A stretch of 64,000 nt of DNA from Patescibacteria group bacterium (GCA_018971045.1 JAGWVF010000005.1:10764-74763); one strand, 5' to 3'. Counted from the stretch's first letter, positions 1-42,511 are shown. Made by a program: numbers and translations. Notes: generated from the sequence alone by a model not told the origin.

Positions 1-823
1 CACGAGCCGCCAGATTCGCGAGCGCCTCGAGCGCGAACTCGAAGTGAATGTCGGATTGAAAGTCAATTTTGATAAGAGCGAGGTCTTTCACGTCTCCGGA
101 CGCGGCGAGCTGCATATCGCGGTCTTGCTCGAAAATATGCGCCGCGAGGGTTACGAACTCCAGGTCTCACAGCCGCACGTGATTACGCGCGAAGAAAACG
201 GCGTGAAGCTTGAACCGTTCGAGGAGGTGATCATTGATTCTCCTTCGGAATTTCAGGGCGCCGTTATTGAGAAGCTTGGACAGCGCGCATTCGTGCTCCA
301 GAACGTGGAACAGGAGGGCGATCACGTTCGGCTCACGCTTCACGGTCCGACGCGCGGACTTCTGGGTTACAAGAGCTCGTTCATTATCGACACCAAGGGC
401 GAGGGTATTCTTTCATCACGTTTTATCGGCTTCGAGCCGTATGCGGGCGAGATCAAAAAAAGGCAGGTCGGCTCGATGATCTCGATGGCGAACGGAAAGG
501 CGCTCGGCTTCTCGCTCTGGAATCTCCAGGATCGCGGCCAGCTCTATATCACGCCCGCGACCGAGATTTACGAAGGGATGGTGGTGGGGAATACGTCGAA
601 AGGCGAAGAGATGATGGTGAATCCGACAAAAGGGAAACAGCTTTCCAACATGCGCGCCTCCGGCTCGGACGAAGCGATTTACCTCACGCCGGCGTACGAG
701 CTCACGATTGAACGCGGGCTCGAGATCATGGCTGACGACGAGTATCTCGAGATTACGCCCGCATCAGTACGCCTTCGCAAACAGCATCTCACCGAGAACG
801 AACGCGCCAAGGCGCGCCGCTGA
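1..823 (+). CDS. typA: GTP-binding protein TypA/BipA, C-terminal portion (5' end outside window)
   Basis: The reading frame is open from the window edge (frame 2). The translation matches the BipA C-terminal domains (…GELHIAVLLENMRREGYELQVSQP… through …TENERAKARR). Confidence 0.8.
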   Translation, partial: TSRQIRERLERELEVNVGLKVNFDKSEVFHVSGRGELHIAVLLENMRREGYELQVSQPHVITREENGVKLEPFEEVIIDSPSEFQGAVIEKLGQRAFVLQNVEQEGDHVRLTLHGPTRGLLGYKSSFIIDTKGEGILSSRFIGFEPYAGEIKKRQVGSMISMANGKALGFSLWNLQDRGQLYITPATEIYEGMVVGNTSKGEEMMVNPTKGKQLSNMRASGSDEAIYLTPAYELTIERGLEIMADDEYLEITPASVRLRKQHLTENERAKARR

Positions 824-834
824 CTGCTATACTT

Positions 835-1158
835 TTGGAGCCGATGAAATCGTTTCGTTACTACTTCTTTCTCGTTCTCCATATCGTCCTCTTAATTGCG
901 TGGTATACGTCGCCTTTCTACCTTGACTGGCGGATCGTCATCCTCACCGTCGTTCTGTACCATTTCCAGCTCTACTATGCGAAAGGGTGTCTCATCACCC
1001 AGGGGCAGTTCGGGAAGCAGAACGAGGGATTCTATTACCATTACCTTACCAAGTTCGGATTTCATCCCGATAAAAAAAAGCTCTCCTTCGTGCTTGATTA
1101 TATTATTCCGGGCATGATGATTGTACTCGCGATTACGCTTCAGGTGGTACTGAAGTAG
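835..1158 (+). CDS. hypothetical small membrane protein
   Basis: 107-aa ORF with hydrophobic segments. It starts 12 nt after the typA stop. Confidence 0.45.
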   Translation: MEPMKSFRYYFFLVLHIVLLIAWYTSPFYLDWRIVILTVVLYHFQLYYAKGCLITQGQFGKQNEGFYYHYLTKFGFHPDKKKLSFVLDYIIPGMMIVLAITLQVVLK

Positions 1159-1708
1159 GCGCTGAAAAAAAGGGCTGCAACAAAGGCGGCATGCTCCAGC
1201 GGGAGAGCGGGAGCGCCCGCGCGATCGCCGGAGCATTGACGGCAGCGTACTGTTTCTCTTCCCCGATCTTCTTAAAGCCGAGCAGAGAGTAAAACCGGTC
1301 ATGTTTCGGATTGATTGAGATGCAGAGGTAATCCACGCCCAATTGTCTGGCGTACGTCAGTACGGCGGCGAAGAGAGGGGCCGCGGCAAAGGGGGAATGA
1401 CGCTCGTTTCGATCGACGGCGAACTGAACGACCTCGGCGAGCGTCTTCCCGCTCGCGCGCCACGGAGCGAGCTCGCGAGCGTAGAGGCTGTCCATCGGGA
1501 GCCCTTCCGTATCGGGCACGATTGAGAGGGTGCCGATCAGTGTTTCGTTACGAAACAGACCAAAGGTCCGCGCGCCTGGAGCGTCCAGATATTTTGAGAT
1601 CGAGTCCGTAACGCGGTACCCTTCGGCCTCGTACGCGCGCCGCACCAGATCCATCGCCGCGCGCCGCTCCCCGTCCGTCGAGAGTTGACGGCAGGGGGTC
1701 GAGGTCAT
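1133..1708 (-). CDS. GNAT-fold N-acyltransferase, OlsB / FeeM N-acyl amino acid synthase-like
   Basis: 191 aa, last gene of a four-gene overlapping operon with ACP, PPTase and a PlsC-like acyltransferase. The fold call is by pattern recognition only. Confidence 0.55.
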   Translation of the reverse strand: MTSTPCRQLSTDGERRAAMDLVRRAYEAEGYRVTDSISKYLDAPGARTFGLFRNETLIGTLSIVPDTEGLPMDSLYARELAPWRASGKTLAEVVQFAVDRNERHSPFAAAPLFAAVLTYARQLGVDYLCISINPKHDRFYSLLGFKKIGEEKQYAAVNAPAIARALPLSRWSMPPLLQPFFSAPTSVPPEA

Positions 1709-1968
1709 TGCGGAACTCTCGCCGCCGCGGTGGTGTCAGCCGCGGGGAGCGAGTGAATATAGGATAAAATATCTCCCACCGTCTCCACGCGGGCAATCTC
1801 GTCATAGGTTACGCGGCGCCCGGTCATTTGCTCAAACGCGACGAGAAGCTCGAAGAGCGCGATAGAGTCTTTCGCCAGGTCAACGAGCTTCTTTTCCGCG
1901 GTAACCTCGGCTCGAGGCACGTCGAGAGTCTTCGATACAATGCCGATGACTACGTCAGTGAGTTCCAT
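1705..1968 (-). CDS. acyl carrier protein
   Basis: 87 aa with the phosphopantetheine-attachment motif DSIALFELLVAFEQ. It overlaps both neighbours by 4 nt. Confidence 0.7.
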   Translation of the reverse strand: MELTDVVIGIVSKTLDVPRAEVTAEKKLVDLAKDSIALFELLVAFEQMTGRRVTYDEIARVETVGDILSYIHSLPAADTTAAARVPQ

Positions 1969-1971
1969 ACG

Positions 1972-2550
1972 TCAGGATAGAGTGTACCGTCCAAAAGGAG
2001 GCAAGGCAATCGCCGCCATCCAGTGCGTCGAACCAACGCGCGCGGCATAGACGGTCGCCGGCAGACGGTAGCCATGGATACAGATCGCCGATGAACCGGA
2101 CAGGATAGGAGTCAGATCAACTCGAGCCGGGTGTGTCCGTAAGCCGGTACCGATCGCTTTTATCACGGCCTCCTTCATTGACCAGAGGAGTGTGCGCCAT
2201 ATATCGCGAGATTCGAGAGAGTGCGCCTTGATCCAGTTCAGCTCGGATGGGGTGAGGAAGACATTCTCGATGCGCGGAGAGAATGACCTGATGCGCTCAA
2301 CGTCAACGCCGAGAAGACGAGACTTTGTACTCGCGAATGCGAGCGCGTACGGGTACGCATGCGAGATGGAGAGCGCGATCGGGCGCGCGCAGTCCCGTCT
2401 CACGCCGTATGGTTTTCCCGTCGTCTCGCGCTTAATCTCGACAAGGGGAGACGCGGCCGCATGCTGCAGAGCACGCCGCGCCGCCCTCCTTCCGGCGATC
2501 CTGAGCGCTTCTCTCGAGTCTTCAGTGCAGGTCGTGAGGGAGAGAATCAT
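1972..2550 (-). CDS. 4'-phosphopantetheinyl transferase (Sfp/EntD type)
   Basis: Motifs GKPY, SISHA and W-S-M-K-E-A-V-I-K-A are typical of PPTases. Confidence 0.7.
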   Translation of the reverse strand: MILSLTTCTEDSREALRIAGRRAARRALQHAAASPLVEIKRETTGKPYGVRRDCARPIALSISHAYPYALAFASTKSRLLGVDVERIRSFSPRIENVFLTPSELNWIKAHSLESRDIWRTLLWSMKEAVIKAIGTGLRTHPARVDLTPILSGSSAICIHGYRLPATVYAARVGSTHWMAAIALPPFGRYTLS

Positions 2551-3191
2551 TCTGCGAGCGGGCTGAAGAAGGTGCTCATATACTGAAGTTTTGTTTCAGC
2601 AGTGCCGCGTATGATCGGACTATAGTGTATGCGCGCGTCCGTTACGGTCTTCGGATGGATAAAGGAGTCGGTCGTGAATCCCGACAGCCGAACAAACAAT
2701 GTGGGGTAGTCGTGAGCGAAGAGCATCTTAAATCCATTGTGGAACTCTTCAGTTATCACGCCCCCCTCGACGATGCGGCCCTCAGGGAAGAGCAGTACCG
2801 TGCGCTGTTTATCGAGCAGTCCTCGGGTAAAGAGAAGTTTTTTCGCCCGTTCCATCTTGGTCTTGCCGATATCGTAGGCGCCGATGAGCCGCATCGCCCG
2901 ACCGAGGACGGGGCGGCGGGCGTAATCGGGCGTTACCGGGTAGCGCATCGGCACGGCCGTGAGCCAGTTCTGGTGTCCGAGATTATACGTAACGAGGAAA
3001 GGATCGAGCATGCTGCGATGGTTCGCGAGAACCAGCGTCCCCGGAGGGACATAGAGATCGCGAGGAATCGAGACCGTAAGGCCGATGCGGCGGGAGAGCC
3101 ACCAGTCGACCGGACAGGTCGCTATCTGCGTCGTGATGAAAAAACTGTCAAGGGCGACAGTGCCGAGACTTCTTCCGAGCTTGGCAAGCAT
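2547..3191 (-). CDS. lysophospholipid acyltransferase (PlsC/OlsA family)
   Basis: HxxxxD motif (NHRSMLD) and the FPEGR motif of glycerol-3-phosphate/lyso-lipid acyltransferases. Confidence 0.7.
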   Translation of the reverse strand: MLAKLGRSLGTVALDSFFITTQIATCPVDWWLSRRIGLTVSIPRDLYVPPGTLVLANHRSMLDPFLVTYNLGHQNWLTAVPMRYPVTPDYARRPVLGRAMRLIGAYDIGKTKMERAKKLLFTRGLLDKQRTVLLFPEGRIVEGGVITEEFHNGFKMLFAHDYPTLFVRLSGFTTDSFIHPKTVTDARIHYSPIIRGTAETKLQYMSTFFSPLAE

Positions 3192-3203
3192 ATTGGGTAC
3201 CTT

Positions 3204-4070
3204 CTAGCGTACCATGCGCGCAAGGTACCATTTCTTGATCCTCTGGATAATGTTGCGGTTTCCGCCTCGAAGGCGCGTACGGCGGAATTTACGCACAAAG
3301 GGGTCAAATTGCCACGAAACAGGGGCTGATTCGTAAGGAAGGCCGATAATGACTTTATACGCTTCGCACCCTATAAGAGCGGCGCAAGCAAGAGTTCCTA
3401 CGACGGTTGATGGCGCACGATGTCCAGTGAGATCAATGCCTTTCGGCGGGAAGTACGGATATTGAAGAAGCCGCGGAGCGACTCCGATGGCGAATCTTAT
3501 GAGTTGCTCCTGCTCTGATAAACCGTCTTTCAGATCGAAGTATTCATCGAAGCTCATTCCAGTCGGACTGAAGTTTGTCATTGAGGACCCGAATCCGACA
3601 GGCGCGGCGTTCAGCACGGGGATTCCGCGGCTACGGCATTCCCGGTACAGGAGCCGATGAATTAAAGGAGAAAAGAAATCAATGCCGTCGCAGGCGAGCG
3701 CGCAGTTTTGTAGAAATTTCTCGGCATTTTCAGGCGTGAGCGCCGAAAAGACGCGCACCTCGGCTGTCGGGTTGATGTCTTTGATCATTCGCTCCATCAC
3801 GGCCGCTTTACTCGCGCCCATCGTGCTTGTCGTCGCGCCCTGTTGGCGGTTGGTGTTCGCGACCTCAAAGGCGTCAGGGTCGGCAATCGAGAAATGCCCG
3901 ATGCCAAGCCGGGCGAGAGTGGTCGCGTAGATGCCCCCCACGCCTCCGAGTCCTGCGATAGCGACGCGGGCATTGCGGAGCTTTTCTTGGCGGTCTCGAG
4001 AAATAAGGTCGAAATTCCGATCAAACGCGCGATCGTATATCCATTCGGAAGATGATCCCACCTCGTTCAT
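3204..4070 (-). CDS. ThiF/MoeB/E1-like adenylyltransferase
   Basis: Rossmann motif VAIAGLGGVGG. Start chosen at MNEVG (4070) because the longer ORF would overlap the divergent nitroreductase gene. It lies 12 nt upstream of the acyltransferase. Confidence 0.65.
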   Translation of the reverse strand: MNEVGSSSEWIYDRAFDRNFDLISRDRQEKLRNARVAIAGLGGVGGIYATTLARLGIGHFSIADPDAFEVANTNRQQGATTSTMGASKAAVMERMIKDINPTAEVRVFSALTPENAEKFLQNCALACDGIDFFSPLIHRLLYRECRSRGIPVLNAAPVGFGSSMTNFSPTGMSFDEYFDLKDGLSEQEQLIRFAIGVAPRLLQYPYFPPKGIDLTGHRAPSTVVGTLACAALIGCEAYKVIIGLPYESAPVSWQFDPFVRKFRRTRLRGGNRNIIQRIKKWYLARMVR

Positions 4071-4130
4071 TACTGGATAGTATACCCGATTGTGGCCGCG
4101 TCGAGTGCAACTTCGTGTATAATAGCGGCA

Positions 4131-5219
4131 ATGAATGACGATCTCCGTTTTATCCTTGGAGAAGCGATCAAAGCTCCGTCGGGCGATAATAATCAGCCGT
4201 GGCGTTGGAAAGTGCAGGGGACCGTGTTGCACCTATGGGACGAATCTCCGGATGACCCTGTTTCGGCTCTCTACGGCGGGACGCATGAGCGGCGCCACTC
4301 CTCGCTGATTGTCTTTGGAGCCGCTATCGAGAATGTCGTACTGGCCGCAACCACGCGCGGCTATCGATCCGAGGTTCAGTATTTCCCCGACCCGGAGAAG
4401 CCGGATTTCATTGCTTCGATAACGTTGACAAGCGACCGAGAAGTGAATCCCGATCCGTTGGCGGCGGGCATCTCTCTTCGGACGACGAATCGCCGATCCT
4501 ATCGGCGTACCCCGCTTACTTCTCGCGAGCGGAGCGAGTTGACCCAAGCAGCCGGCGAAAGGGGATCGGTCGTGTTCATCGACGCGCCGAAGGATCTCGA
4601 CGCGCTTGCCGCTGACGCGGCAATCAATAATGAATATATTTTCTCGGTGAAAGCCGTTCATGATTATATGTTCTCGAAAATCACGTGGACCAAGGCTGAA
4701 GACAATCGCATGCGAACCGGCTTTTATTTCCCCACGCTCGCCGCTCCGCCGTTTTCGTGGGGAGCGATGCAGCTCCTCAGCCACTGGCCGCTGATGCGGG
4801 TCGGAGCGGCCATCGGCCTTCATCGCCTCATCGCTCTTGAACAACGATGGGTGTATCGGCAAGCCGGAAATTTCGGTCTCGTGACGGCCTCCGGGAACGA
4901 ACCCGAAGATTTGGTTCGTTGCGGCCGAAGCGTCGAACGCTTATGGATTATGGCGGCGCTGAACGGGCTCAGTCTCCAGCCTCTGAATGGAACGCTCCTC
5001 TTCGCCGAGAATGCGGATACTCCCGAAGGGATCGCTCTGCTGACGCCCGCCGAACGAAAACGGCTCAAGGCCGCACGGATTGATATTGCCCGCCGTTTCG
5101 GAGTTTCTCCGGACGCCATGGCCTTCCTGTTTCGGATCGGACGAGCGAAGCCGCCATCGGCGCGCACCTCGCGCCTGCCTCTTGAGAGCCGGGCGACGAT
5201 ACTGTCGAGAGAACCATAA
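4131..5219 (+). CDS. nitroreductase-family FMN oxidoreductase
   Basis: Nitroreductase signature SGDNNQPWRW. Start set at MNDDLRF, preceded by TATAAT at 4119-4124. An alternative ATG is at 4092. Confidence 0.65.
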   Translation: MNDDLRFILGEAIKAPSGDNNQPWRWKVQGTVLHLWDESPDDPVSALYGGTHERRHSSLIVFGAAIENVVLAATTRGYRSEVQYFPDPEKPDFIASITLTSDREVNPDPLAAGISLRTTNRRSYRRTPLTSRERSELTQAAGERGSVVFIDAPKDLDALAADAAINNEYIFSVKAVHDYMFSKITWTKAEDNRMRTGFYFPTLAAPPFSWGAMQLLSHWPLMRVGAAIGLHRLIALEQRWVYRQAGNFGLVTASGNEPEDLVRCGRSVERLWIMAALNGLSLQPLNGTLLFAENADTPEGIALLTPAERKRLKAARIDIARRFGVSPDAMAFLFRIGRAKPPSARTSRLPLESRATILSREP

Positions 5220-5225
5220 TTTTCT

Positions 5226-6518
5226 ATGCCTGTTTCTTTCGATCCGGCAACCTATGCGCCGAGAACGCGCCGGCGATCGTCGCTTCGCGTCGGGCTTTTT
5301 CTCGCGTCTCGGCTCACGCGGGCCAATATCGGCACCAGTCTTCTTATCGTTCTAGTGATGGTGCTTACGTATCTCAATTTAATCATGGTGAGCGGCATCA
5401 TGGTCGGCATTGTCGAGGGCCTCAATCAGGAACGCCAGACGAATTACAGCGGAGACATCATGGTGAGCAAGCTGAGCCAATACGATTCGATTCAAAATTC
5501 GCCCGATATAGAATCGTATCTCCGTTCGCTCCCCGCCGTCGCGTCTCTGTCGCCGCGATACGTCGCGGCGGGGGTGCTTGAAGCGAACTATGCTGACAAG
5601 CTTCGACCGCAGGATCTCCCGGACTCGATCACCGCGAACATCGTCGGCATCGATCCGCCTCTTGAGGATGCCACCACGCACTTCTCGCATCTCATCGTTG
5701 CCGGACAGTATCTTCAGCCAAGCGACTACGATCAGGTACTGGTGGGCACGAGTCTCCTCGCCGAGTTCAAACAATTGACGGCCATTCCCGGAGAAAATCC
5801 GCTTCCAAACACAGGAGTCGGCAGTAAGATCCGCGTTCGTATCGGCAATATCGAACGGGAAATGACCATCAAGGGCATTGTGGGGAGTAAGATGGAAGAG
5901 ATCAATTTGCGGGCGTTTATCGTCGCTCCCGAGTTGCGTTCGATCCTGGGCCGCGTCGACAATGGAGTCAATGAAATAGCCGTTACGCTCGCGCCGGGTA
6001 CGAACGTCATACCGATTGAAAATCAACTCAAGCAATCGATCGTCGGCGCGAACGCGCTTGTGCAGAACGCCGCCGAATCGCGGCCGGTATTCTTTCAAGA
6101 TTTTTCCGTTACGTTCAATCAATTAGGATCGCTCCTCGGCGGAATCGGCTTGATCGTCGCGTGCATCGTGATGTTTATTATCGTGTTTATTAACATTGTG
6201 AATCGCCGGCGATCAATCGGGATCTTGCAGGCTATCGGCATTCGCTCCCTCGGTATCGAGCTGGCCTATATCGCGCAGGCCGTCCTGTACACTCTCGCGG
6301 GATCCATGCTCGGCGTGATCCTCGTGTTCGGTTTTCTCCAGCCCTATTTCCTTAATCATCCGCTTGATTTCCCGTTCAGCAACGGCGTTCTCTCCGTTAC
6401 GCTCGCGGGTGCCGCGGCGCGGATAGTCATTCTCGCGGCCGCCATCATGATCGCCAGCTATGTGCCGGCGCGGCTCATCATGCGTCAAGAAATTGTCGAT
6501 GCGATCTTAGGTCGCTGA
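5226..6518 (+). CDS. ABC transporter permease (FtsX/MacB-like)
   Basis: 430 aa with four hydrophobic helices and a large periplasmic loop, followed directly by the ATPase gene. Confidence 0.7.
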   Translation: MPVSFDPATYAPRTRRRSSLRVGLFLASRLTRANIGTSLLIVLVMVLTYLNLIMVSGIMVGIVEGLNQERQTNYSGDIMVSKLSQYDSIQNSPDIESYLRSLPAVASLSPRYVAAGVLEANYADKLRPQDLPDSITANIVGIDPPLEDATTHFSHLIVAGQYLQPSDYDQVLVGTSLLAEFKQLTAIPGENPLPNTGVGSKIRVRIGNIEREMTIKGIVGSKMEEINLRAFIVAPELRSILGRVDNGVNEIAVTLAPGTNVIPIENQLKQSIVGANALVQNAAESRPVFFQDFSVTFNQLGSLLGGIGLIVACIVMFIIVFINIVNRRRSIGILQAIGIRSLGIELAYIAQAVLYTLAGSMLGVILVFGFLQPYFLNHPLDFPFSNGVLSVTLAGAAARIVILAAAIMIASYVPARLIMRQEIVDAILGR

Positions 6519-6523
6519 CGCCT

Positions 6524-7252
6524 ATGCTCGAAGCCCGCAATCTTAAAAAGCAGTTTCTTTCAGGAGAAGAATCGTTTGTTCTTTATGAACGGCTCGATCT
6601 CACCGTGAGAGAGGGCGAATTCGTCATTCTCACCGGCCGCTCGGGGAGCGGGAAGTCAACGCTCCTCTATCAGCTCGGGCTTCTCGATACGCCGGCCGAG
6701 GGTGATGTAATAGTCGACGGGGCGTACACGCGCGGGCTCTCGCGTACGGCGCGTACGGATCTTCGTCTCGATCATTTCGGCTACGTGTTCCAAGACTATG
6801 GTCTTATGCCGGAGCTCTCGGCGCTTGATAACGTACTCCTTACCTTTGTCATGCGCGGCGAACCCATGGCGGCGGCGCGCGAGAAAGCGACCGCCGCGCT
6901 CGATCGGGTAGGTCTTGCGGATCGCCTATCGTCCAAGCCTTCGCAATTGTCCGGCGGCCAGCAGCAGCGGGTATCGATCGCCCGAGCCATCGCCCACGCG
7001 CCTCGGTACGTGCTCGCCGACGAACCGACGGCGAATCTCGACAGCGCCAGCGCGAAACGCGTACTCGACTTATTCGGCGATATCCATCGAACGGGATCAA
7101 TCGTCATTATGGTTACGCATGAACTCGAGTCGTTGCGTCTCGCCGATCATGTCTATGAACTTCATGACGGAGTTTTGCGCGAGATGACCCGCGACGGACA
7201 ATCCCCGAACGAGAAGCCGACGGGCGTCAATCTCGACCCCCATAGTCTATAA
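6524..7252 (+). CDS. ABC transporter ATP-binding protein
   Basis: Walker A GRSGSGKST and ABC signature LSGGQQQR. Confidence 0.85.
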   Translation: MLEARNLKKQFLSGEESFVLYERLDLTVREGEFVILTGRSGSGKSTLLYQLGLLDTPAEGDVIVDGAYTRGLSRTARTDLRLDHFGYVFQDYGLMPELSALDNVLLTFVMRGEPMAAAREKATAALDRVGLADRLSSKPSQLSGGQQQRVSIARAIAHAPRYVLADEPTANLDSASAKRVLDLFGDIHRTGSIVIMVTHELESLRLADHVYELHDGVLREMTRDGQSPNEKPTGVNLDPHSL

Positions 7253-7262
7253 TGAGAAGCTA

Positions 7263-8810
7263 ATGAACCGTCTTGTTATCGCGGGCGTACTCGCAGTGAT
7301 CGTTCTTACGGGTGCGGCGGCGTATATGATTTCCGGACAGGGAAGCGAGTCGGCGCTCGCGAGTGTTCCGGTAACGTATCGAGATCTCACGGCGCGCGTG
7401 CGGATCTCGGGCACGACGGAAGCGCAGCGGTCGGTGGATCTCTCGTTTCGAAATGACGGCATCGTGGGGATCGTTCCGGTGGCCGTCGGCGATACGGTCG
7501 CGACCGGCACCCTGCTCGCGGCGCTTCAAAAGGCGATCTTGCAAGATCAGATTGACCAGGCTATGGCGGCGCTCCAAGCCCAAAAAGCCAACCTTCAGAA
7601 TCTCTTGAACGGCACGCGGCGGGACCAGGTGGCGATTACCCAAGCTCAGCTTGACAGCAGTCAGTCAGGGCTTAAAAGCGCGAATCAGGAGCTCTTGAGT
7701 TCGCTCCGAAACGCGCAGGGCACGGCCGATATCGCGGTACGCATGACGATCGATCAGTTTATTCAAAATCCTTCATTGGCGAGCTCAGTCCTCACGATTC
7801 CTGTCGTGAGCAGTGCTGTCGGGGCCTCAGTGCTCACCGAGCGTCAGCAAATTCAACCCGCGCTCGATACCTGGGCGTCCCGTCTCGCGAACCTTTCGGC
7901 GGCATCGGCCAATGATCTCGTTTCTGCGAGTCGAGACATGCACGCGTATCTCGACACGATCGCGGCGATTCTCGACGGCCTCACCCGCCTCCTCTCCTCC
8001 GGAAATTCTGAACAATTCGCCTCAAGCCAAACGGCCGTCGGCTCGGCGCGTTCCTCGATTATGTCCGTGCGGTCGGCGCTTACTTCGGCCGATCAGGGCG
8101 TCGCGAGCGCGCAGTCGGCCGTCGGCGTCGCTCAAAAACAACTGGCTCTCGATCAAGGCGGCTCGACCCAGTCCACGATTACGGCACAACGCGCCGCGGT
8201 GGCTTCGGCTCAGGCTCGGGTGAACGAGCTCGAAGACGCTCTCGGCGATCTGCGCATCCTCGCGCCCTTTAGCGGTACCGTCGCTTCTCTTACCGCGAAG
8301 GCGAGTGAAGCCGCGCGCGCGGGCATTCCGGAAGTCTCTCTCATCTCGAACGATCCGCTTAAAATCGAGGGATATGTTCCCGAATCGCATTACGCTGAAT
8401 TAGCGGTCGGACAATCCGCCTCGATTCGTTTCATCGCGTTTCCGAACGATACGTTTCAAGGGACGATCGGCCGCATCGATCCCGTTGCCGTCCTCCAGGA
8501 TCAAGTGCCGAACGTCAAGGTAACGATCTATCTCGCTTCTGCCGACGCCCGCTTGAAACCCGGACTCACCGCCACGGCGGATATTGTTACGGAACAGAAG
8601 CCCCACGCGCTCTCTGTCCCTCTCGCGGCGGTACAGGGTTTCGGCGCTTCGGCGACCGTCCTCAGAAAAGTCGCCGGCAAGGTCGAAAGCACGCCCGTAA
8701 CTCTCGGGATTCAGGACAATGACGGGTACGTCGAAATCGTATCCGGATTGTCCGAGCTCGATACGGTGCTCGTCAACGAGACGAGGCAGTACCGGATCGT
8801 GCCGAATTGA
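7263..8810 (+). CDS. HlyD-family periplasmic adaptor (membrane fusion protein)
   Basis: N-terminal TM, long Q/A-rich coiled coil, and a C-terminal beta-barrel region. Confidence 0.7.
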   Translation: MNRLVIAGVLAVIVLTGAAAYMISGQGSESALASVPVTYRDLTARVRISGTTEAQRSVDLSFRNDGIVGIVPVAVGDTVATGTLLAALQKAILQDQIDQAMAALQAQKANLQNLLNGTRRDQVAITQAQLDSSQSGLKSANQELLSSLRNAQGTADIAVRMTIDQFIQNPSLASSVLTIPVVSSAVGASVLTERQQIQPALDTWASRLANLSAASANDLVSASRDMHAYLDTIAAILDGLTRLLSSGNSEQFASSQTAVGSARSSIMSVRSALTSADQGVASAQSAVGVAQKQLALDQGGSTQSTITAQRAAVASAQARVNELEDALGDLRILAPFSGTVASLTAKASEAARAGIPEVSLISNDPLKIEGYVPESHYAELAVGQSASIRFIAFPNDTFQGTIGRIDPVAVLQDQVPNVKVTIYLASADARLKPGLTATADIVTEQKPHALSVPLAAVQGFGASATVLRKVAGKVESTPVTLGIQDNDGYVEIVSGLSELDTVLVNETRQYRIVPN

Positions 8811-8822
8811 CCCGGAAGCGCC

Positions 8823-9539
8823 ATGCCGATTCTGTGGATTCTCTTCTTTCTTCTCGCGAGCCTCGGGCTCGTTGAAACTTTCCGCTTATGGTGGTTCGTG
8901 AGCCGAGAAAAGCGCCCGCTCGAGAAATTCGAACGCCTCAATCCCGACGCCGCCGTTCATATCCTCTTTGTCGGCGACAGTACGGGGTGGGGGAATGGGA
9001 CAAGCGATCCGCGGTACTCGGTTCCGGGAAGAATCGCCGCCGATTTTCCCGCGGTTCATCTCGAGAATGAAAGCCGCGGAGGCCGGCGTTTGCGGCAGAT
9101 CGCATCGATTCTCGAGAACCGTTTGAAATCGCTCCCCGCGCCCGCTTTCGATCTGGTGGTCGTGATGGTCGGCGGCGCTGATGTGACGTACTTCACGCCC
9201 CTTTGGACCATTCCCGCTACGCTCCGCCGCGTGATCGCGCTCGCGCGCCGCTCTGGGCGAGAGGTGCTTGTCGTGAGCCCCTCGAATGCCGGGCTGGCTC
9301 CGCTCTACGCTTTTCCTCTCTCTTGGATCTATACGTGCCGCGCGCGAAAGATCAAGCGGTACTATGAGGCGGTATGCGAGGAAATGCGCGTTCCCCATAC
9401 GTCGCTCTTTGTCGAGGCGGACGATCCGGTCGTCCTCGGCGGACACTTTTCTCGAGACAAAACCCATCCGAATGACGAGGGATATCGGCTTTGGTATGAG
9501 CACTTGAAAAGCGATATCCGATCTCTCCTCAGTCGCTAG
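8823..9539 (+). CDS. SGNH/GDSL hydrolase
   Basis: GDSTGWG block and DKTHPNDEGY block. Confidence 0.7.
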   Translation: MPILWILFFLLASLGLVETFRLWWFVSREKRPLEKFERLNPDAAVHILFVGDSTGWGNGTSDPRYSVPGRIAADFPAVHLENESRGGRRLRQIASILENRLKSLPAPAFDLVVVMVGGADVTYFTPLWTIPATLRRVIALARRSGREVLVVSPSNAGLAPLYAFPLSWIYTCRARKIKRYYEAVCEEMRVPHTSLFVEADDPVVLGGHFSRDKTHPNDEGYRLWYEHLKSDIRSLLSR

Positions 9540-9544
9540 CTCTC

Positions 9545-10495
9545 ATGCCGTTTATGTCATCCGCGAACTCGTTTCTCATCCTCGTGGTAAAGTCCATCGG
9601 ATCCTTTATCGTGCTGTCCGGCGCCAACCTGTTCGATACCATCGTCTTCAGCATCAATAGTATTAAGGCGGGAGATCAATCCGCACTCCCGGCATTATTT
9701 TTCATCGGTATCGAATTCTATTTGTTCTTCTTCGTATACCGCGTTTTTCGCATGATCTGGTATTTATCGCGCGAGGTGCCGTTCTTTCGAACGGCTGATC
9801 CGTATTTTTCGGCGCCGTGGCGGGGAGGGAAACGGATATTGCTTATCGGCGACAGCACGGCGTACGGCACGGGAGCGAGCCGTCCGGAAGACACGCTTGC
9901 CGGCCGGCTCGGCCGCGATTTTCCGACAGCCGAAATCGTAAATAAGGCGATAAACGGCTCGAAGGCGAAAAGCGCGCTCGAACAGCTCCGATCGACGGAG
10001 GGGCAGTTCGATCTCATTCTGATTTGCACGGGAGGCAATGATATTTGGAGCTACACGCGGCTCGCGACGCTTGAACAACATATGGACAATCTTCTTACGG
10101 AAGCCGTCGGTCGAAGCAATCATCAAGTCGTTGTACTCTTCTATCCCAATTTCGCGACAGCGGACATCTTTCCGAACCCGCTCCATTCCATCATGACGCG
10201 GCGGTCGCAGGAAGTATTTAATCTGTTTTCTCGCGTAACGAGCGCGTTCAACGTCCCGCTCATTGACCTCTTTACGACCTTTAAATCAAGAGATTTTTTC
10301 TCGGTGCGTGTCGCTGAAGATCGCGATCAATACGTCGCCGCGGACAAAATGCATCCGAACAGCGAAGGATATCGGCTCTGGTATAACCGGATGTGGCGCG
10401 AGATGGTCGAACATCGTTTTCCCTTTGTCGCGGCGCTGAAATCTCAAAACGGGGAGAGTATTCGTATGCAGTCGCTCGTGCGCCGCGAAAATTAA
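9545..10495 (+). CDS. SGNH/GDSL hydrolase, membrane-anchored paralog
   Basis: N-terminal TM helices, then GDSTAYGTG and DKMHPNSEGYRLWY blocks. It is a tandem paralog of the preceding gene. Confidence 0.7.
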   Translation: MPFMSSANSFLILVVKSIGSFIVLSGANLFDTIVFSINSIKAGDQSALPALFFIGIEFYLFFFVYRVFRMIWYLSREVPFFRTADPYFSAPWRGGKRILLIGDSTAYGTGASRPEDTLAGRLGRDFPTAEIVNKAINGSKAKSALEQLRSTEGQFDLILICTGGNDIWSYTRLATLEQHMDNLLTEAVGRSNHQVVVLFYPNFATADIFPNPLHSIMTRRSQEVFNLFSRVTSAFNVPLIDLFTTFKSRDFFSVRVAEDRDQYVAADKMHPNSEGYRLWYNRMWREMVEHRFPFVAALKSQNGESIRMQSLVRREN

Positions 10496-10539
10496 AAGGA
10501 CCCGCATTTGTCATGGGGCCCTTTCTTCCGCGCCCTGTC

Positions 10540-10737
10540 TCACGGGCTGGCCGGATTCGATGATTGTTTCTTTAGTCGAGCAAGAAACTCCTCTTCGGGG
10601 TGGTCCGGATAGCGCGGTTGCGACTCGATGGTGCGCGTGCACGCTCTTGAACACGTCCCGCTTTCTCTATAGCGGGCATAGAATCCATCGATTGGACGCG
10701 CACACACCATACAGCGGTAGAGCAGTTTCTTCGCCAC
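10540..10737 (-). CDS. hypothetical small Cys-rich protein
   Basis: 65 aa with paired cysteines (CMVC…CSRAC). Weak. Confidence 0.2.
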   Translation of the reverse strand: MAKKLLYRCMVCARPIDGFYARYRESGTCSRACTRTIESQPRYPDHPEEEFLARLKKQSSNPASP

Positions 10738-10870
10738 CGCTTCAGAAAGAACAGGGTTCCTGTTAATTTTCTTCCCCTTTCGGTCGGTTCGTTGACGGGT
10801 TTTGACGACTATAGACAGCGCAGGGCTGTCTGTTTGTACGGTACTCGACTCTAGTGAGAACGCAAGAGAT

Positions 10871-10904
10871 AACGCACAGCCGCCCGTACGGGCGGCTGTG
10901 CGTT
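10871..10904 (-). terminator. rho-independent terminator hairpin (perfect 15-bp stem) downstream of tmRNA
   Basis: aacgcacagccgccc-gtac-gggcggctgtgcgtt. Confidence 0.5.
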
Positions 10905-10909
10905 TATTA

Positions 10910-11317
10910 GGTGGAGATGTCGGGAATCGAACCCGAGTCCGAATCTGTTCAGGAAAGCGAGTCTACGGCGCGTAGTCGGCGTTATCTTTAAAGCAGGGTG
11001 CGAGGAACGCAGACGAAACCATCCCTGCCCGATCCCTTATTTAAATGTGCCGGTCGGGAAGCCGGACATCGATTCCGCAGGAGATTCCACCCATCGGCTC
11101 GACTGCAGAAACTCGGAGCCGGCGGATGTCGCGAGGCGAGTGGCCGTTAGGCGACCGCGTGCGCGAACGCGAAATCCTTCATACTGAAGTACGGGGACTT
11201 CGCGCTTGCAAGAGTGTTCTTGGCAAGTTTGATGGCTCGGTGGATTTACGTGGCATACGAGCGTGCACGGCGCCGCACGTCTTTCAAGGTACAGACCGTC
11301 AAAGCCGGTCATCCCCG
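10910..11317 (-). ncRNA. ssrA: tmRNA (SsrA)
   Basis: - The minus-strand 5' end GGGGAUGACCGGCUUUGACGG fits the tmRNA consensus.
- The 3' end is GGUUCGAUUCCCGACAUCUCCACC.
- The acceptor stem pairs with a G3-U70 wobble.
- It lies immediately downstream of smpB. Confidence 0.7.
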
Positions 11318-11351: not shown

Positions 11352-11795
11352 CTACCGATGTTTCAATACGCGTGCGCGTTCGCGATCGGCATCGCGCTTT
11401 TTTAAATCTTCGCGGCGGTCGGCTTTTCCCTTGCCGCGAACGATCGCGATTCGCGCTTTTACGAATCTATTTTTAGTATACACCTCAAGTGGAATAATTG
11501 TCAATCCTCTCTTCGCTTCTTCCTGCGCCAAGGTCGCGATTTCTTTCTTAGTAAGGAGAAGGCGGCGCGGACGCTCGGCGTCATAACTCTTCGCGATATT
11601 CGCCGTTTGGTAGGGCGGGATGGTCATGCCCACGATATACGCCTCGCCGCCGCGCACCACGACCCGCGCGCCATCAAGCGATCCTTGCTTATTCCGCAAC
11701 GACTTCACCTCGTCGCCCATAAGCTCAAGTCCGGCTGAGAAGGTCTCGATCGGTTGGAATTTGAGCAATGCCTTCTTGTATTCGACGAGCGTCAT
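11352..11795 (-). CDS. smpB: SsrA-binding protein SmpB
   Basis: MTLVEYKKALLKFQPIETFSAGLELMGDEVKSLR… is typical SmpB. Start trimmed to 11795 to avoid overlap with divergent ftsH. Confidence 0.85.
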   Translation of the reverse strand: MTLVEYKKALLKFQPIETFSAGLELMGDEVKSLRNKQGSLDGARVVVRGGEAYIVGMTIPPYQTANIAKSYDAERPRRLLLTKKEIATLAQEEAKRGLTIIPLEVYTKNRFVKARIAIVRGKGKADRREDLKKRDADRERARVLKHR

Positions 11796-11817
11796 ACGGT
11801 GCAGTATACTCGGTTTT

Positions 11818-13788
11818 ATGACAAGCGGAGCGCCCAAGAAGCCAAAGGGACCGCCGGGTAACCGGCCGGGGAAGAAGCCCGCGCCCCGCACAGGGTGGCG
11901 CGGCCTTTTCGGCGGGCCGTCGTTCTTCGGAAATCTCGCGACCACCATTCTCATCTTTCTCTTACTGATGAGCGGCTACTCGCTCGTTATGAATACGATC
12001 AAGCCGAGTAATGAGATCCCGCTCTCGACGGTCGCGGCGGATGTCGCTCTAGGAAAGGTGAGTTCGATCTCAGTGAGCGGCGATTCGCTCGAAGTGGTCT
12101 ATGCCGACAAGACCGAGAAGACCTCCCGCAAGGATCCCTCGACCGGGCTTCCCGAGACGCTCGCGACGTACGGCGTGACGCCCGCCGAGCTTGCGAAGGT
12201 CGCGATCACCATCCAAGGACAATCAGGATTCGAGTTCTGGCTCCTCACGCTCGGGCCGATTCTGATACCGATCCTTTTTATCGCGTTTCTTTTCTGGTTT
12301 CTCTCGAGGCAGGTAAAGGGCGCGGGGATGCAGGCATTTACCTTCGGCCAATCGAAGGCGCGCATCACTGACCCGGCAGACGTGAATCAGCGCGTTACCT
12401 TCGCCGATGTCGCCGGCGCGCGCGAGGCGAAGGAGGAGCTTCTGGAGATCGTCGACTTTCTCAAGAGCCCGAAGAAGTTTCTCGATATCGGCGCCCGAAT
12501 CCCGAAGGGCATCATTCTCATGGGTGCCCCGGGGACCGGAAAGACGCTTCTCGCGCGCGCGGTCGCGGGCGAGGCGGGCGTGCCGTTCTTCTCGATCAGC
12601 GGATCCGAGTTCGTCGAGATGTTTGTCGGCGTCGGCGCCAGCCGCGTGCGCGACTTGTTCCAGATGGCGAAGAAGGCCGCTCCGGCGATTATCTTCGTTG
12701 ACGAGATCGACGCGGTCGGGCGCGTGCGCGGTACCGGCGTCGGCGGCGGCAATGACGAGCGCGAGCAGACGCTCAACCAAATCTTGGTCGAGATGGACGG
12801 CTTCGAGCCGACGGAGAAGGTGGTAGTGATGGCGGCAACCAACCGGCCGGATGTTCTCGACCCGGCGCTTCTGCGCCCCGGGCGCTTTGACCGCCGCGTG
12901 ACGATCGATCTCCCTGATCGCCGCGATCGCGAGGATATTTTGAAGATTCACGCGCGCGCGAAGCCTCTTGGCCCCGATGTCGCCCTCTCGGTCATCGCCG
13001 AGCGCACGCCCGGCTTCTCGGGCGCGGAGCTTTACTCGCTTATGAACGAAGCAGCGATTCTTGCCGCGCGCGAGAACCGCAAGGAAGTGACGCAGTACGA
13101 TCTCATTCGTTCGATTGAAAAAGTGATGCTCGGCCCCGAGCGGAAATCGCACCTGCTCAGTAAGAAAGAGAAGGAGCTCACCGCCTACCACGAGGCCGGG
13201 CACGCGCTCGTCTCCTCGATTCTTCCGAACGCCGATCCGGTGCATAAGATCTCGATCATCAGCCGCGGCCGCGCCGCCGGCTACACGCTGAAGCTTCCCT
13301 TCGAGGACCGCAAGATGCAATCCAAGAAGCAGTTTCTCGACGATATCGCGGCCACGCTCGGCGGCTACGTCGCCGAGGAGATGCTCTTCGACGACGTTAC
13401 GACCGGGCCCTCTAACGACCTGATGGTCATCACCGCGCTCGCGCGCGAGATGGTAACGCGCTACGGAATGAGCGATGTCTTGGGGCCGATCGCGTTTGGC
13501 GAGCGCCAGCTCGGCAACGAGCCGTACTCGGAGCAGGTGGCGGCGCAAATCGACGCCGAAGTCGCGCGCATCATCTCCGACGCCAAGGCGCGCGCGAAGA
13601 GCGTGCTTATCGAGCATCGCTCCGCTCTCGACGCGATCGCGAAAGAGCTCGTTGAAAAGGAGACGATCGAACGCGCCGACTTCGAGAAGCTGCTTATTGC
13701 GAACGGCATCACGCCAAAGAAACAGGACGAAGAGGGGATCGTCATCGCGCCCCTCATCGACAGCGCCACCGGGAGCGACGTTATATAA
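11818..13788 (+). CDS. ftsH: ATP-dependent zinc metalloprotease FtsH
   Basis: - AAA+ Walker A GAPGTGKT.
- Second region of homology.
- HEAGH zinc site.
- Start set at MTSGAPKK (11818). Confidence 0.9.
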
Positions 13789-25505: not shown

Positions 25506-27893
25506 ATGTCTAAAACCGCCAAATCCCCTCTTCATTCCAAGACCCTCGCCGTGCGCACGCCGAAAGCGGCAGAAAAAACGATTTCAAAAGAAACGCTGCG
25601 CTATCGAGAACTCATTCCGCAGGTGGAGAAGCGCGATGGACGATTGGTGGCCTTTGACTTCGACAAGATCGCGACGGCGGTGTGGAAAGCGATGAACGAG
25701 GCAGGTGAAGGGGGACAGGAAGACGCGGTCTTGATAGCGCATCAGGTAGCCGGCGAGCTCGCGCGTTTCGCCAAGAAATACAAGAGCTTCCTGCCCACCG
25801 TCGAGGGCATGCAGGACTCAGTCGAGAAATACCTTATATTGAATGATTATGTGAAGACGGCGAAAGCCTACATCCTCTATCGCGACAAGCGCGCCCAGCT
25901 GCGCGCCGCGCACGTAGATATTCCAGAGCGCGTCAAGAAGCTCGCTGAAGAGAGCAAGAAATATTTCAAAGATAATATTCTCGGCGAGTTTGTCTATCTC
26001 CGCACCTATGCGAAATGGATTCCTGAAGAAGGACGCCGGGAAACATGGGTTGAGACGGTCGATCGTTATATGAGTTTTATGCGCGAGAACTTGGGTGATA
26101 AGCTTACGCAAAAAGAATACGCCGAAGTTCAGACGGGCATCTTAAAGCAGGAAGTGATGCCGTCGATGCGGCTCATGCAGTTTTCCGGCGAGGCCGCGCG
26201 GCGCTGTAATACGTGCGCGTATAATTGCACTTTCATCGCGCCGTCGTCGCTTAAGGATTTTTCCGAAATTATGTATCTCTCGATGCAGGGCTGTGGCGTC
26301 GGTTTCGCCGTAGAAAGCCAGAATGTCGAACAGCTCCCGCAGATCAAGAAGCAGACGGGAGTAAAGCTGCCAACGCACGTCATCGGCGATTCAAAAGAAG
26401 GGTGGTGCGACGCGCTCACGCTCGGTATCGAGACGTGGTACGCCGGCAAGGATATCACGTTTGATGCCTCCCAAGTCCGGCCAGCCGGAGCGCGGCTCAA
26501 GACCATGGGCGGGAAGGCGAGCGGTCCCGAGCCGCTTCTCTCGCTCATCGCTTTTGCCCGCGATCGGATTATGGCGCGCCAGGGGCGCCGCCTGCGCGCG
26601 ATCGATGTCCACGACATCATCTGCAAGATCGGCGAGTGCGTGGTTGCGGGCGGCGTGCGCCGTACGGCGATGATCTCGCTCTCGGACCTTGACGATACTG
26701 ACATGCGCGACGCGAAGAAAGGCCAGTTCTATATGACCGATCCGCATCGTTCGGTCGCAAACAATTCCGCCGTCTACGAGGCACCGCCGACGAATGCCGA
26801 GCTGATGGACGAGTGGGTCGCGCTCATGAAGAGCGGGAGCGGCGAGCGGGGCATCTTCAATCGCGGATCGCTCGGCGTTACCTTTCCGAAGCGCCGCACC
26901 GATTATTTTAAGAAGATCGGTTTCATCGGCGAGGATGGAGTCGTCCGCGGATCGATCGGCACGAATCCGTGCGCCGAAATCATTCTTCAATCAAAGCAGT
27001 TTTGCAATCTCTCCGAAGTGATCGCCCGCGCGGCTGACACCGAAGCGTCGCTCGTGCGCAAGACGCGCCTCGCCGCCATCCTCGGCACCTATCAATCGAC
27101 GCTGACGAAGTTCAATTACATCTCGCAGGATTGGACCGATCACTGCCGCGCCGAACGCCTTCTCGGCGTTTCAGTAACGGGGCAGTGGGACTCGCCGGTT
27201 GCGCGAGAGCCCGAGGTGATGCGCAAGCTCCGCGATACCGCTGTGAAGACGAATGCCGCCTATGCGAAGCGTTTCGGAGTGGAGCCGTCGATGGCGGTTA
27301 CCGCCGTAAAACCTTCAGGCACGGTCTCGCAGACTTTTAATTGCGCCTCGGGCATTCATCCGCGCCACGCGCCTTATTACATCCGTCGCGTGCGCATCAG
27401 CGCGACCGACTCGCTCTTTAAGATGATGCGCGATCAGGGAGTGCAGTATTATCCGGAAGTGGGGCAGTCGATGGATCAGGCAAATACCTACGTCTTTGAA
27501 TTTCCGATTAAGGCGCCCGACCACTCGAAGGGGGCGCGTTTCAAGGATAATCTCTCCGCGCTTGAACAACTCGATTACTGGAAGCGGGTGAAGCTCAACT
27601 TCACCGAGCACAATCCTTCGGCGACTATCTCTGTCGGCTCGAGCGAGTGGATCGGCGTTGTCGACTGGATCCAGAAGAACTGGGATATTATCGGAGGTCT
27701 TTCGTTCCTCCCGCGTTCTGAACACGTGTACCGCCTTGCGCCGTACGAAGCGATTACCAAAGAGGAGTATGAAGAGCGTCTCGCCCGATTCCCCGAAGTG
27801 GATTATTCAAAGCTGATCGCGTACGAACGCCAGGACGAAACCGAAATGAAAAAAGAGCTTGCCTGCGCCGGAGGAACCTGCGAGATCGTTTAA
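25506..27893 (+). CDS. nrdJ: class II (adenosylcobalamin-dependent) ribonucleotide reductase NrdJ with N-terminal ATP-cone
   Basis: ATP-cone (VEKRDGRLVAFDFDKI), active-site TNPCAEI, C-terminal Cys pair CAGGTCEIV. Confidence 0.85.
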   Translation: MSKTAKSPLHSKTLAVRTPKAAEKTISKETLRYRELIPQVEKRDGRLVAFDFDKIATAVWKAMNEAGEGGQEDAVLIAHQVAGELARFAKKYKSFLPTVEGMQDSVEKYLILNDYVKTAKAYILYRDKRAQLRAAHVDIPERVKKLAEESKKYFKDNILGEFVYLRTYAKWIPEEGRRETWVETVDRYMSFMRENLGDKLTQKEYAEVQTGILKQEVMPSMRLMQFSGEAARRCNTCAYNCTFIAPSSLKDFSEIMYLSMQGCGVGFAVESQNVEQLPQIKKQTGVKLPTHVIGDSKEGWCDALTLGIETWYAGKDITFDASQVRPAGARLKTMGGKASGPEPLLSLIAFARDRIMARQGRRLRAIDVHDIICKIGECVVAGGVRRTAMISLSDLDDTDMRDAKKGQFYMTDPHRSVANNSAVYEAPPTNAELMDEWVALMKSGSGERGIFNRGSLGVTFPKRRTDYFKKIGFIGEDGVVRGSIGTNPCAEIILQSKQFCNLSEVIARAADTEASLVRKTRLAAILGTYQSTLTKFNYISQDWTDHCRAERLLGVSVTGQWDSPVAREPEVMRKLRDTAVKTNAAYAKRFGVEPSMAVTAVKPSGTVSQTFNCASGIHPRHAPYYIRRVRISATDSLFKMMRDQGVQYYPEVGQSMDQANTYVFEFPIKAPDHSKGARFKDNLSALEQLDYWKRVKLNFTEHNPSATISVGSSEWIGVVDWIQKNWDIIGGLSFLPRSEHVYRLAPYEAITKEEYEERLARFPEVDYSKLIAYERQDETEMKKELACAGGTCEIV

Positions 27894-27903
27894 GGGGCAG
27901 AGG

Positions 27904-27931: not shown

Positions 27932-27939
27932 CCATCTCT

Positions 27940-42510: not shown

Positions 42511-42511
42511 T

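Follow-up and report, generated by a model that had tools for sequence, protein, structure and literature searches.

A 64,000-nt stretch of DNA from a Patescibacteria group bacterium (GCA_018971045.1, JAGWVF010000005.1:10764-74763), here referred to as the window and numbered from its first nucleotide, carries a compact gene group in which a GNAT-type N-acyltransferase, an acyl carrier protein (ACP), a 4'-phosphopantetheinyl transferase (PPTase) and a PlsC-like acyltransferase are encoded together with a ThiF-like adenylating enzyme and a divergently transcribed oxidase of the nitroreductase (NTR) superfamily. Which product could such a combination of genes direct? A preliminary description of this group had seen in it the logic of ornithine-lipid (OlsB then OlsA) or N-acyl amino acid synthesis. 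The analysis reported here makes it probable that the locus, which comprises 11 genes, directs the synthesis and export of an aromatic amino acid derivative bearing a lipid chain, by an ACP-dependent chemistry that appears orthologous to that of the fatty acid enol ester (fee) cluster and is joined to an oxazolone-synthetase pair.

The locus is an 11-gene divergent pair of operons spanning 1133-10495 (Table 1). Five minus-strand open reading frames (ORFs), called mechanically at 1133-1708, 1705-1968, 1972-2550, 2547-3191 and 3204-4232, are packed with two 4-nt overlaps, a 3-nt gap and a 12-nt gap, of which the gap of 3 nt between the ACP and PPTase genes had been left out of the preliminary description while the other spacings had been given correctly. 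NCBIfam alignment and the N-termini of orthologues place the start of the ThiF gene at the ATG at 4070, not at 4232. The NTR gene starts with the ATG at 4131 (MNDDLRF...SGDNNQPWRW), a position at which its orthologues share the same N-terminal residues, and exactly 60 nt separate the two divergent starts, in agreement with the distance noted before. The NTR gene opens a tightly spaced operon on the plus strand that continues through three exporter genes and two hydrolase genes, and the extent of 1133-5219 proposed earlier is only half of the unit. All six of the original gene calls were borne out by a Pfam profile search, which placed the proteins in the FeeM, PP-binding, ACPS, PF01553, ThiF and Nitroreductase families. 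The region between the operons contains -10-like hexamers, TATAAT at 4118-4123 on the plus strand and TATACT on the minus strand, which may belong to promoters; a sigma-70 consensus scan gave no full site in these 60 nt, and in a sigma-70 and terminator scan of 700-11000 sites were no more numerous than in shuffled sequence.

The GNAT protein, the predicted N-acyl amino acid synthase (NAS), matched the Pfam family FeeM (PF21926) with 131.8 bits, the cut-off being 27, and a PDB sequence search aligned its residues 7-184 with residues 10-195 of FeeM (PDB 2G0B, E=1.2e-57). It is ~55-57% identical to AAM97306.1, which is 100% identical to FeeM, and it has the same catalytic Glu and the same NPKHDxFY motif. 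The active-site Glu, E92 within LAEVVQF, and H136 and F139 of NPKHDxFY are invariant across 24 sequences. In FeeM, His145 and Phe148 have been implicated in phosphopantetheine/ACP binding, and the acyl donor is a plain chain, C12 acyl-carrier-protein (PMC11685415). FeeM was the top match in the Pfam search, in which no match to PF13444 (OlsB) was found at E<=0.01. Judged from these comparisons, the GNAT is a full-length FeeM orthologue and not OlsB-like, so that of the earlier assignment, a GNAT resembling OlsB or N-acyl amino acid synthases, the second half stands and the first does not. Because identity to the crystallised, ACP-dependent FeeM reaches ~57% over the full length, we strongly infer that the NAS takes a long acyl chain from acyl-ACP and joins it to L-tyrosine, yielding N-acyl-tyrosine.

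The ACP gene lies directly upstream of the NAS gene and overlaps it by 4 nt, a pairing retained in 7 loci. Its Ser35, within DSIxLFELL, is invariant in 7 orthologues, and the protein scored below the housekeeping cut-offs of all NCBIfam ACP models that it matched. In the PPTase the Sfp-type motifs G81xD83xE85R and W123SxK126E127 are invariant in orthologues, and weak NCBIfam matches to HetI, AcpT and EntD were obtained. Synthesis of an N-acyl amino acid with a dedicated ACP and PPTase, one of the two options first proposed, is supported by the FeeM-family NAS and its adjoining genes; the family of the GNAT and the serine context of the ACP, on which that proposal had been made to depend, both agree with it.

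The fee cluster was reportedly cloned from soil environmental DNA (eDNA) by Brady, Chao & Clardy (2002), and FeeM, the NAS of PDB 2G0B, and the ACP FeeL are said to have been treated by Van Wagoner & Clardy (2006). The fee clone is said to have made N-acyl-tyrosines plus enol esters. The PlsC-like acyltransferase of the window is 59% identical to AAM97303.1, a protein of the same uncultured bacterium CSLC2 record as FeeM (AAM97306.1), which we take to be the 13-gene feeA-M cluster; the comparison with fee covers these two of the 13 proteins. AAM97303.1 stands three accession numbers ahead of FeeM, as predicted by the order acyltransferase, PPTase, ACP, NAS. A later source traces the eDNA record bearing FeeM to work from 2002 (PMC9152772). 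The fee cluster came without a known source organism, whereas the window locus belongs to a Patescibacteria metagenome-assembled genome (MAG). Because FeeM and AAM97303.1 both nest among sequences of the candidate phyla radiation, their closest relatives being of Kaiserbacteria or Ryanbacteria type and 65-75% identical, the source organism of FeeM was very probably a member of that radiation.

The two enzymes that flank the divergent region were examined against the NCBIfam models. The ThiF-like protein scored 320.7 bits with NF006077, above the cut-off of 266, as well as 261 bits with the N-terminal (ThiF) half of PRK14851 and 190 bits with PRK14852. Its scores with cofactor families were low (ThiF 81.5 against a cut-off of 275, MoeB 70.4 against 266, TcdA 68 bits). 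GxGGxGG, D64, NxNRQ, K88, D128 and D131 are invariant in the orthologues, the alignment of which shows no CxxC and no invariant Cys. A role in ThiF/MoeB-type cofactor biosynthesis was rejected from these scores, the missing CxxC and the lack of a partner ORF. The NTR protein scored 154.5 bits with the C-terminal, flavin-dependent oxidase (FDO) half of the Rv1355c (TrzS) family and 148.5 bits with PRK14851, and it matched Acg (PDB 2YMV) at E=4e-4; its motifs APSxDNxQPW and RxTxR are invariant in orthologues. PRK14851 is a 679-aa ThiF-NTR fusion family whose two halves are thus matched by the two window proteins, while PRK14852 (989 aa) is matched in successive segments by the window GNAT, ThiF and NTR and is a Rosetta-stone fusion of all three activities. 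Outside these clusters, a ThiF protein 51% identical to that of the window sits in a plain NAS/ThiF/NTR trio.

The preliminary description had pointed out that no ThiF-like enzyme belongs to the known ornithine-lipid pathways. A ThiF cyclase and an NTR oxidase do define a different set of lipid pathways, those leading to acyl-oxazolones, namely OxzA/OxzB of Pseudoalteromonas rubra (bioRxiv 10.1101/2020.06.11.147165), TyzA/TyzB/TyzC of Mycobacterium tuberculosis (PMC10404671) and TrzA/TrzS of the same species, TrzS being Rv1355c (PMC12856293). Common to all three are an N-acyltransferase that makes an N-acyl aromatic amino acid, a ThiF-type enzyme that uses ATP to form the 5(4H)-oxazolone and an NTR-superfamily flavin oxidase that uses O2 to desaturate the C-alpha/C-beta bond (bioRxiv 10.1101/2020.06.11.147165; PMC10404671; PMC12856293). 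Oxazolone synthetases have been recognised by a ThiF-type gene adjacent or fused to an FDO gene and adjoining an amino-acid N-acyltransferase gene (PMC12856293), and this arrangement is found in the window, where the ThiF and NTR genes are divergent and 60 nt apart and the NAS gene is within the ThiF operon. The divergent layout is that of tyzA / tyzB-tyzC as well. Like those systems, the window has an N-acyltransferase of FeeM-like fold, its ThiF and NTR proteins match the halves of the fused form, and the adenylation Asp and nucleotide-binding motifs are conserved, the equivalence of this Asp to TrzS D217 having been taken through the ThiF/TcdA alignment and not by direct alignment with TrzS. 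We infer that the window ThiF and NTR proteins are an oxazolone-type cyclase/desaturase pair. The differences are that the N-acyltransferases of OxzAB, TyzABC and TrzAS use acyl-CoA whereas the window NAS appears to be of the ACP-dependent FeeM type, that a MacB pump is absent from those systems, and that their hosts make their own fatty acids. The same trio of NasY-type NAS, ThiF-family and nitroreductase-family genes also occurs in the N-acyl-dehydrotyrosine clusters for stieleriacine (Stieleria), kyonggic acid (Massilia) and thalassotalic acid (Thalassotalea) (PMC12479983), for which, unlike the window, no ACP, PPTase or PlsC-like acyltransferase has been reported.

The genes of the cluster were found to be syntenic in at least 8 independent metagenomic or MAG loci. 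By tblastn all 11 genes were located in a Kaiserbacteria locus (L006), in a different order in L009/L018, and in a third order in L014, whose NAS is only ~37-42% identical. The 11-gene set thus recurs in Kaiserbacteria, Paceibacterota, Ryanbacteria and other MAGs, and its retention through rearrangement argues that the genes function together. Every locus examined has the core, which consists of the genes for ThiF, the acyltransferase, the PPTase, the ACP and the NAS, and the permease and both GDSL hydrolase genes are co-conserved with the cluster in other loci.

On this basis the following pathway is proposed. The Sfp-type PPTase would convert the dedicated apo-ACP at Ser35 into holo-ACP, as the families of the two proteins suggest, and holo-ACP would then be acylated. 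The FeeM orthologue would, with high likelihood, use acyl-ACP to acylate L-tyrosine at its alpha-amine and so give N-acyl-tyrosine, although Phe or another aromatic amino acid may be the acceptor instead. By homology with TyzB, OxzB and TrzS and by gene context, the ThiF-like enzyme would adenylate the carboxylate of the N-acyl amino acid, and attack by the amide oxygen would close the 5(4H)-oxazolone. Homology and context likewise suggest that the NTR-type flavin oxidase, with O2, would introduce the C-alpha=C-beta double bond, giving an acyl-tyrazolone or, after hydrolysis of the ring, N-acyl-2,3-dehydrotyrosine. Finally, the co-conserved MacB-type tripartite pump would export the product or protect the producer.

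Several points weigh against this pathway. The ThiF gene is kept in loci that lack the NTR gene (L003/L007 and L008), so that ThiF may serve a function for which no desaturation is required; in L003/L007 both the NTR gene and the pump are lacking. The products of Stieleria, Massilia and Thalassotalea are open-chain dehydrotyrosines, with no oxazolones seen (PMC12479983). OxzAB, TyzABC and TrzAS operate without ACP, PPTase, PlsC-like or GDSL genes, and the presence of these in the window is unexplained by the model. No ThiF protein from the fee record was found among the best 120 ThiF relatives, although these candidates were collected by shared words and the result is not proof of absence. The NTR protein reached 135 bits with the Acg family, below the cut-off of 199, and its Pfam match is faint (Table 1); the putative clade of each of the two enzymes was assigned from NCBIfam models and gene context, not from a tree with TyzB, TyzC, OxzB and TrzS. 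The amino-acid specificity of the NAS is extrapolated from FeeM, and the oxazolone product, unlike those of OxzAB, TyzABC and TrzAS, is predicted from genes alone.

Much of what the oxazolone pathway leaves over concerns the PlsC-like acyltransferase. This protein scored 29.8 bits with TIGR00530, far under the PlsC/AGPAT cut-off of 103 bits in NCBIfam, a score that does not support the OlsA-like label given earlier. A canonical housekeeping role as PlsC was rejected. Its relatives are few: 29 in an index of 5.8 billion proteins, and, by exhaustive HMMER search over 1.84 billion representatives, 105 at E<=1e-3 and 13 at E<=1e-30, while its patterns were matched in 4 of 185,579 species genomes. 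A PDB sequence search returned nothing. The AlphaFold2 model (pLDDT, the predicted local distance difference test score, of 80) has a GPAT/PlsC fold with PlsC 5KYM as top PDB match at 13% identity, and the Foldseek matches are generic (GPAT, PlsC, LpxM), so that the fold does not identify the acceptor. H58x4D63 and FPEG are invariant in orthologues, and the O-acyltransferase dyad is intact. In the loci examined the acyltransferase, ACP and PPTase genes never occur without NAS and ThiF genes. Taken together, these searches place the acyltransferase in an isolated clade, far from PlsC or OlsA, whose members occur only alongside this ACP and ThiF. As the simplest conjectures, the acyltransferase and the two GDSL hydrolases may furnish the ACP with acyl groups taken from scavenged (lyso)lipids, or a second acyl group, O-linked, may be added by the acyltransferase.

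A further transformed ester, for example a fatty acid enol ester as reported for the fee cluster, was considered as the end product in place of an oxazolone or a dehydrotyrosine. The core would then act as a channel, in which the PlsC-like enzyme hands on ThiF-activated N-acyl-tyrosine, the oxazolone (in itself an activated acyl donor) or acyl-ACP to an acceptor with a hydroxyl or enol group. The acyltransferase has an intact HX4D/FPEG site and shows strict co-conservation with ThiF and ACP, even in loci without NTR, and the eDNA record of FeeM contains its orthologue too; no characterised enzyme belongs to its clade, however, and the PDB fold matches are of the generic kind. Such an ester is a live variant of the favoured model, but as the actual end product it seems unlikely.

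The GDSL hydrolases invite a wider, and similarly unlikely, extension of the oxazolone pathway. Both are membrane-anchored and predicted to face the cytoplasm, and with the isolated PlsC-like enzyme they might serve to scavenge acyl groups from host (lyso)phospholipids onto the private ACP, independently of fatty-acid synthase, feeding an exported, electrophilic N-acyl-tyrosine-derived oxazolone that acts on the host or on competitors. Mammalian lysophospholipid acyltransferases (LPLATs) can run a reverse, thiol-dependent reaction with CoA, which offers a possible model for transfer from phospholipid to ACP. Were this combined scheme true, FeeM, from the first eDNA-derived natural-product cluster, would have come from the candidate phyla radiation.

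An ornithine-lipid-like aminolipid, in which the GNAT N-acylates and the PlsC-like enzyme O-acylates to form a diacyl lipid that replaces phospholipid in a cell without lipid synthesis of its own, is improbable. The resemblance lies in the two-step logic shared with OlsB/OlsA and GlsB/GlsA (PMC12479983), in which an N-acyltransferase is followed by an O-acyltransferase of the PlsC superfamily with acyl-ACP donors; in the window, too, a PlsC-superfamily acyltransferase adjoins the N-acyltransferase and the ACP, and Patescibacteria are reported to be without lipid biosynthesis (PMC11665869). Unlike in those systems, however, the GNAT is of the FeeM family and gave no PF13444 match, and the acyltransferase belongs to its isolated clade, two results that do not support the earlier OlsB-then-OlsA framing. 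FeeM donors are plain chains (PMC11685415), and if that holds here the 3-hydroxyl esterified by OlsA/GlsA would be missing. The ThiF enzyme, the NTR enzyme and the dedicated exporter, absent from OlsB/OlsA and GlsB/GlsA, are left unexplained by an aminolipid, and the rarity of the cluster (the 4 species genomes mentioned above) is unlike that of a core membrane lipid of a phylum.

Less probable still is a module for lipid scavenging or remodelling proper, in which the GDSL enzymes strip acyl chains from host (lyso)phospholipids for transport by the LPLAT-like enzyme and the ACP to the cell's own membrane, and NAS, ThiF and NTR form a side branch. Two membrane-anchored SGNH hydrolases with intact catalytic motifs and an LPLAT-fold enzyme are indeed present, and no mechanism of lipid uptake or breakdown has been identified in Patescibacteria, for which lysolipids have been proposed as a source (PMC11665869). 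The strict association of acyltransferase, ACP and PPTase with NAS and ThiF argues against it, as do the sparse distribution and the attached MacB pump of efflux type. A RiPP (ribosomally synthesised and post-translationally modified peptide)/azoline system with an E1-like protein and an FMN dehydrogenase of ThcOx/McbC-like type, the analogy drawn in the preliminary description, or a ThiF/MoeB sulfur-carrier activation is very improbable, the pairing of an E1-like with a nitroreductase-fold gene being a superficial likeness only, since YcaO and ThiS/MoaD-like genes are lacking within 835-10495, where the gaps of 3, 12 and 60 nt leave no space for a precursor peptide, the ThiF and MoeB scores are far below cut-off with no CxxC or conserved Cys, and the NTR protein matches FDO/Acg-type models only and no SagB/McbC-type model.

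The favoured pathway for an N-acyl-tyrosine-derived product was also considered in relation to its host. In NCBI records, proteins identical to the window GNAT, acyltransferase and ThiF carry the name of a Patescibacteria group bacterium, and the MAGs that hold the closest relatives of these three proteins are those of Candidatus Kaiserbacteria, Paceibacterota, Ryanbacteria and Minisyncoccota. Horizontal acquisition as an island was rejected: the GC content is flat at 0.56-0.58, and the flanking genes (BipA, RecG, malic enzyme, LemA, GGDEF, M48) share synteny with loci of Kaiserbacteria. The ~30 larger ORFs of the window include no fatty-acid synthase genes, though 64 kb do not show absence across the genome. 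Patescibacteria are reported to be without lipid synthesis, and no means of taking up or degrading lipids has been identified in them (PMC11665869).

The core chemistry is already known, the locus being a fee-type, FeeM-dependent cluster with a predicted enzyme pair of the known oxazolone-synthetase kind. What it adds is the tie between FeeM/fee and ThiF-NTR chemistry, its placement in the candidate phyla radiation and a set of unexplained lipid-handling genes, and it connects three fields, the eDNA work on FeeM/fee of 2002-2006, the ThiF/NTR oxazolone lipids of 2021-2025 and the biology of ultrasmall Patescibacteria. An exporter-linked cluster with an ACP, a PPTase, an LPLAT-like enzyme and GDSL hydrolases offers a clonable handle on the acquisition and use of acyl chains and on molecules aimed at hosts. 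A literature search found no paper tying N-acyl amino acid synthases to Patescibacteria, its incomplete coverage making this weak evidence that the link is unpublished.

Table 1 Features of the locus and of the apparent mobile element in the same window, with window positions, strand and supporting match or context.
Feature	Position	Strand	Match or context
Small membrane protein, 107 aa, possible accessory member	835..1158	+	78-83% identical ORFs in L010 and L008
N-acyl amino acid synthase (NAS), FeeM orthologue, ACP-dependent-type GNAT, 191 aa	1133..1708	-	FeeM PF21926 E=2.5e-38
Dedicated acyl carrier protein, 87 aa, positional equivalent of FeeL	1705..1968	-	PP-binding E=1e-7
Sfp-type 4'-phosphopantetheinyl transferase (PPTase), 192 aa	1972..2550	-	ACPS PF01648 E=2.6e-16
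Highly divergent PlsC/LPLAT-superfamily acyltransferase, 214 aa	2547..3191	-	PF01553 E=1.2e-13
ThiF/E1-like adenylating enzyme, 288 aa, predicted ATP-dependent oxazolone cyclase (TyzB/OxzB-type)	3204..4070	-	ThiF E=8.5e-40
Divergent intergenic region, 60 nt, -10-like hexamers near both start codons	4071..4130	.	direct sequence reading
NTR-superfamily flavin-dependent oxidase (FDO/Acg-like), 362 aa, predicted C-alpha/C-beta desaturase (TyzC-type)	4131..5219	+	Nitroreductase E=1.7e-6
MacB/FtsX-type ABC exporter permease, 430 aa	5226..6518	+	MacB_PCD, FtsX; four hydrophobic segments
ABC exporter ATPase, 242 aa	6524..7252	+	ABC_tran E=1e-30; LolD-, MacB-, DevA-like matches
HlyD/MacA/YknX-like membrane-fusion adaptor, 515 aa	7263..8810	+	TIGR01730 144.8 bits, above cut-off; HlyD_D23
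Membrane-anchored SGNH/GDSL hydrolase 1, 238 aa	8823..9539	+	Lipase_GDSL_2 E=3e-16; GDS 51, DxxH 212, one N-terminal hydrophobic helix
Membrane-anchored SGNH/GDSL hydrolase 2, 316 aa	9545..10495	+	Lipase_GDSL_2 E=1.6e-20; GDS 102, DxxH 267, two N-terminal hydrophobic helices
Large serine recombinase	39157-40554		mobile element
LOOT RNA, 86.6 bits	40632-40750		mobile element
DNA methylase + ResIII helicase	40801-44830		mobile element
Reverse transcriptase	45590-46636		mobile element
Mutator-family transposase	48612-49790		mobile element
Terminase-like protein	50140-51759		mobile element
Two further DNA methylases	52145-54140		mobile element

Related clusters differ in their accessory genes. In L008, a Patescibacteria MAG, four genes at 4179-9121 stand in place of NTR, encoding an EryCIII-like glycosyltransferase, a hexapeptide-repeat-like ORF (recognised by eye), an AMP-binding ligase of 526 aa and a pyridoxal phosphate-dependent decarboxylase of the Orn/DAP/Arg type. 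The window cluster is without an acyl-ACP synthetase gene, and the ligase of L008 could be the ACP-loading enzyme that it lacks. In Ryanbacteria- and Paceibacterota-type loci (L010-L012 at 4015-8954 and L003 at 596-3566) a FAD_binding_4 oxidase of the VAO/PCMH superfamily, a 527-aa protein without family, a membrane protein of 215 aa and a protein with a VTT/DedA domain are encoded. These occupy the place of the GDSL pair of the window in L010-L012, the nearest metagenomic proxy of fee, and in L003, where NTR is absent, the FAD_binding_4 oxidase may substitute for it as oxidising enzyme. A UbiE-like methyltransferase gene, absent from the window locus, lies inside the clusters of L004/L005 (5689-6366), L014 (2165-2836) and L016 (7712-8302). 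In Stieleria neptunia the stieleriacine cluster likewise has a UbiE-like methyltransferase gene beside its ThiF gene (PMC12479983), a parallel that suggests ring- or O-methylated products in these lineages.

The 107-aa ORF at the left end has 2 or 3 hydrophobic segments and, in convergent orientation, shares its end with the 3' end of the NAS gene. No Pfam or NCBIfam family was matched. One relative lies inside the Ryanbacteria-type cluster (L010, 7993-8304) and another beside the NAS gene in L008, and a counterpart is absent from the remaining loci compared; the ORF is better conserved than every enzyme of the cluster.

The remaining window contains housekeeping genes typical of a reduced genome. 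A transfer-messenger RNA gene (101.5 bits) directly downstream of an smpB-like ORF (recognised by eye), at 10909-11316 and 11352-11954 on the minus strand, follows right after the second GDSL hydrolase gene and marks the end of the cluster. An RNase P class A RNA was found at 27937-28270 on the minus strand with 111 bits against a gathering score of 100, and the mechanically called ORFs 27859-28548 and 28298-28966 are probably not genes, since this RNA overlaps them. Within 36201-37636 on the minus strand lies another ThiF-family gene (270 aa), unrelated to the first and coupled in translation to an ORF of 208 aa without family; its product is under every NCBIfam cut-off, the best score being 60.7 bits with ThiF, and it sits at the margin of what appears to be an integrated mobile element or prophage. 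This element extends over ~35400-56100, between tRNA genes at 35425-35495 and at 55561-55632 / 55972-56044, and its GC content falls to 0.50-0.53.

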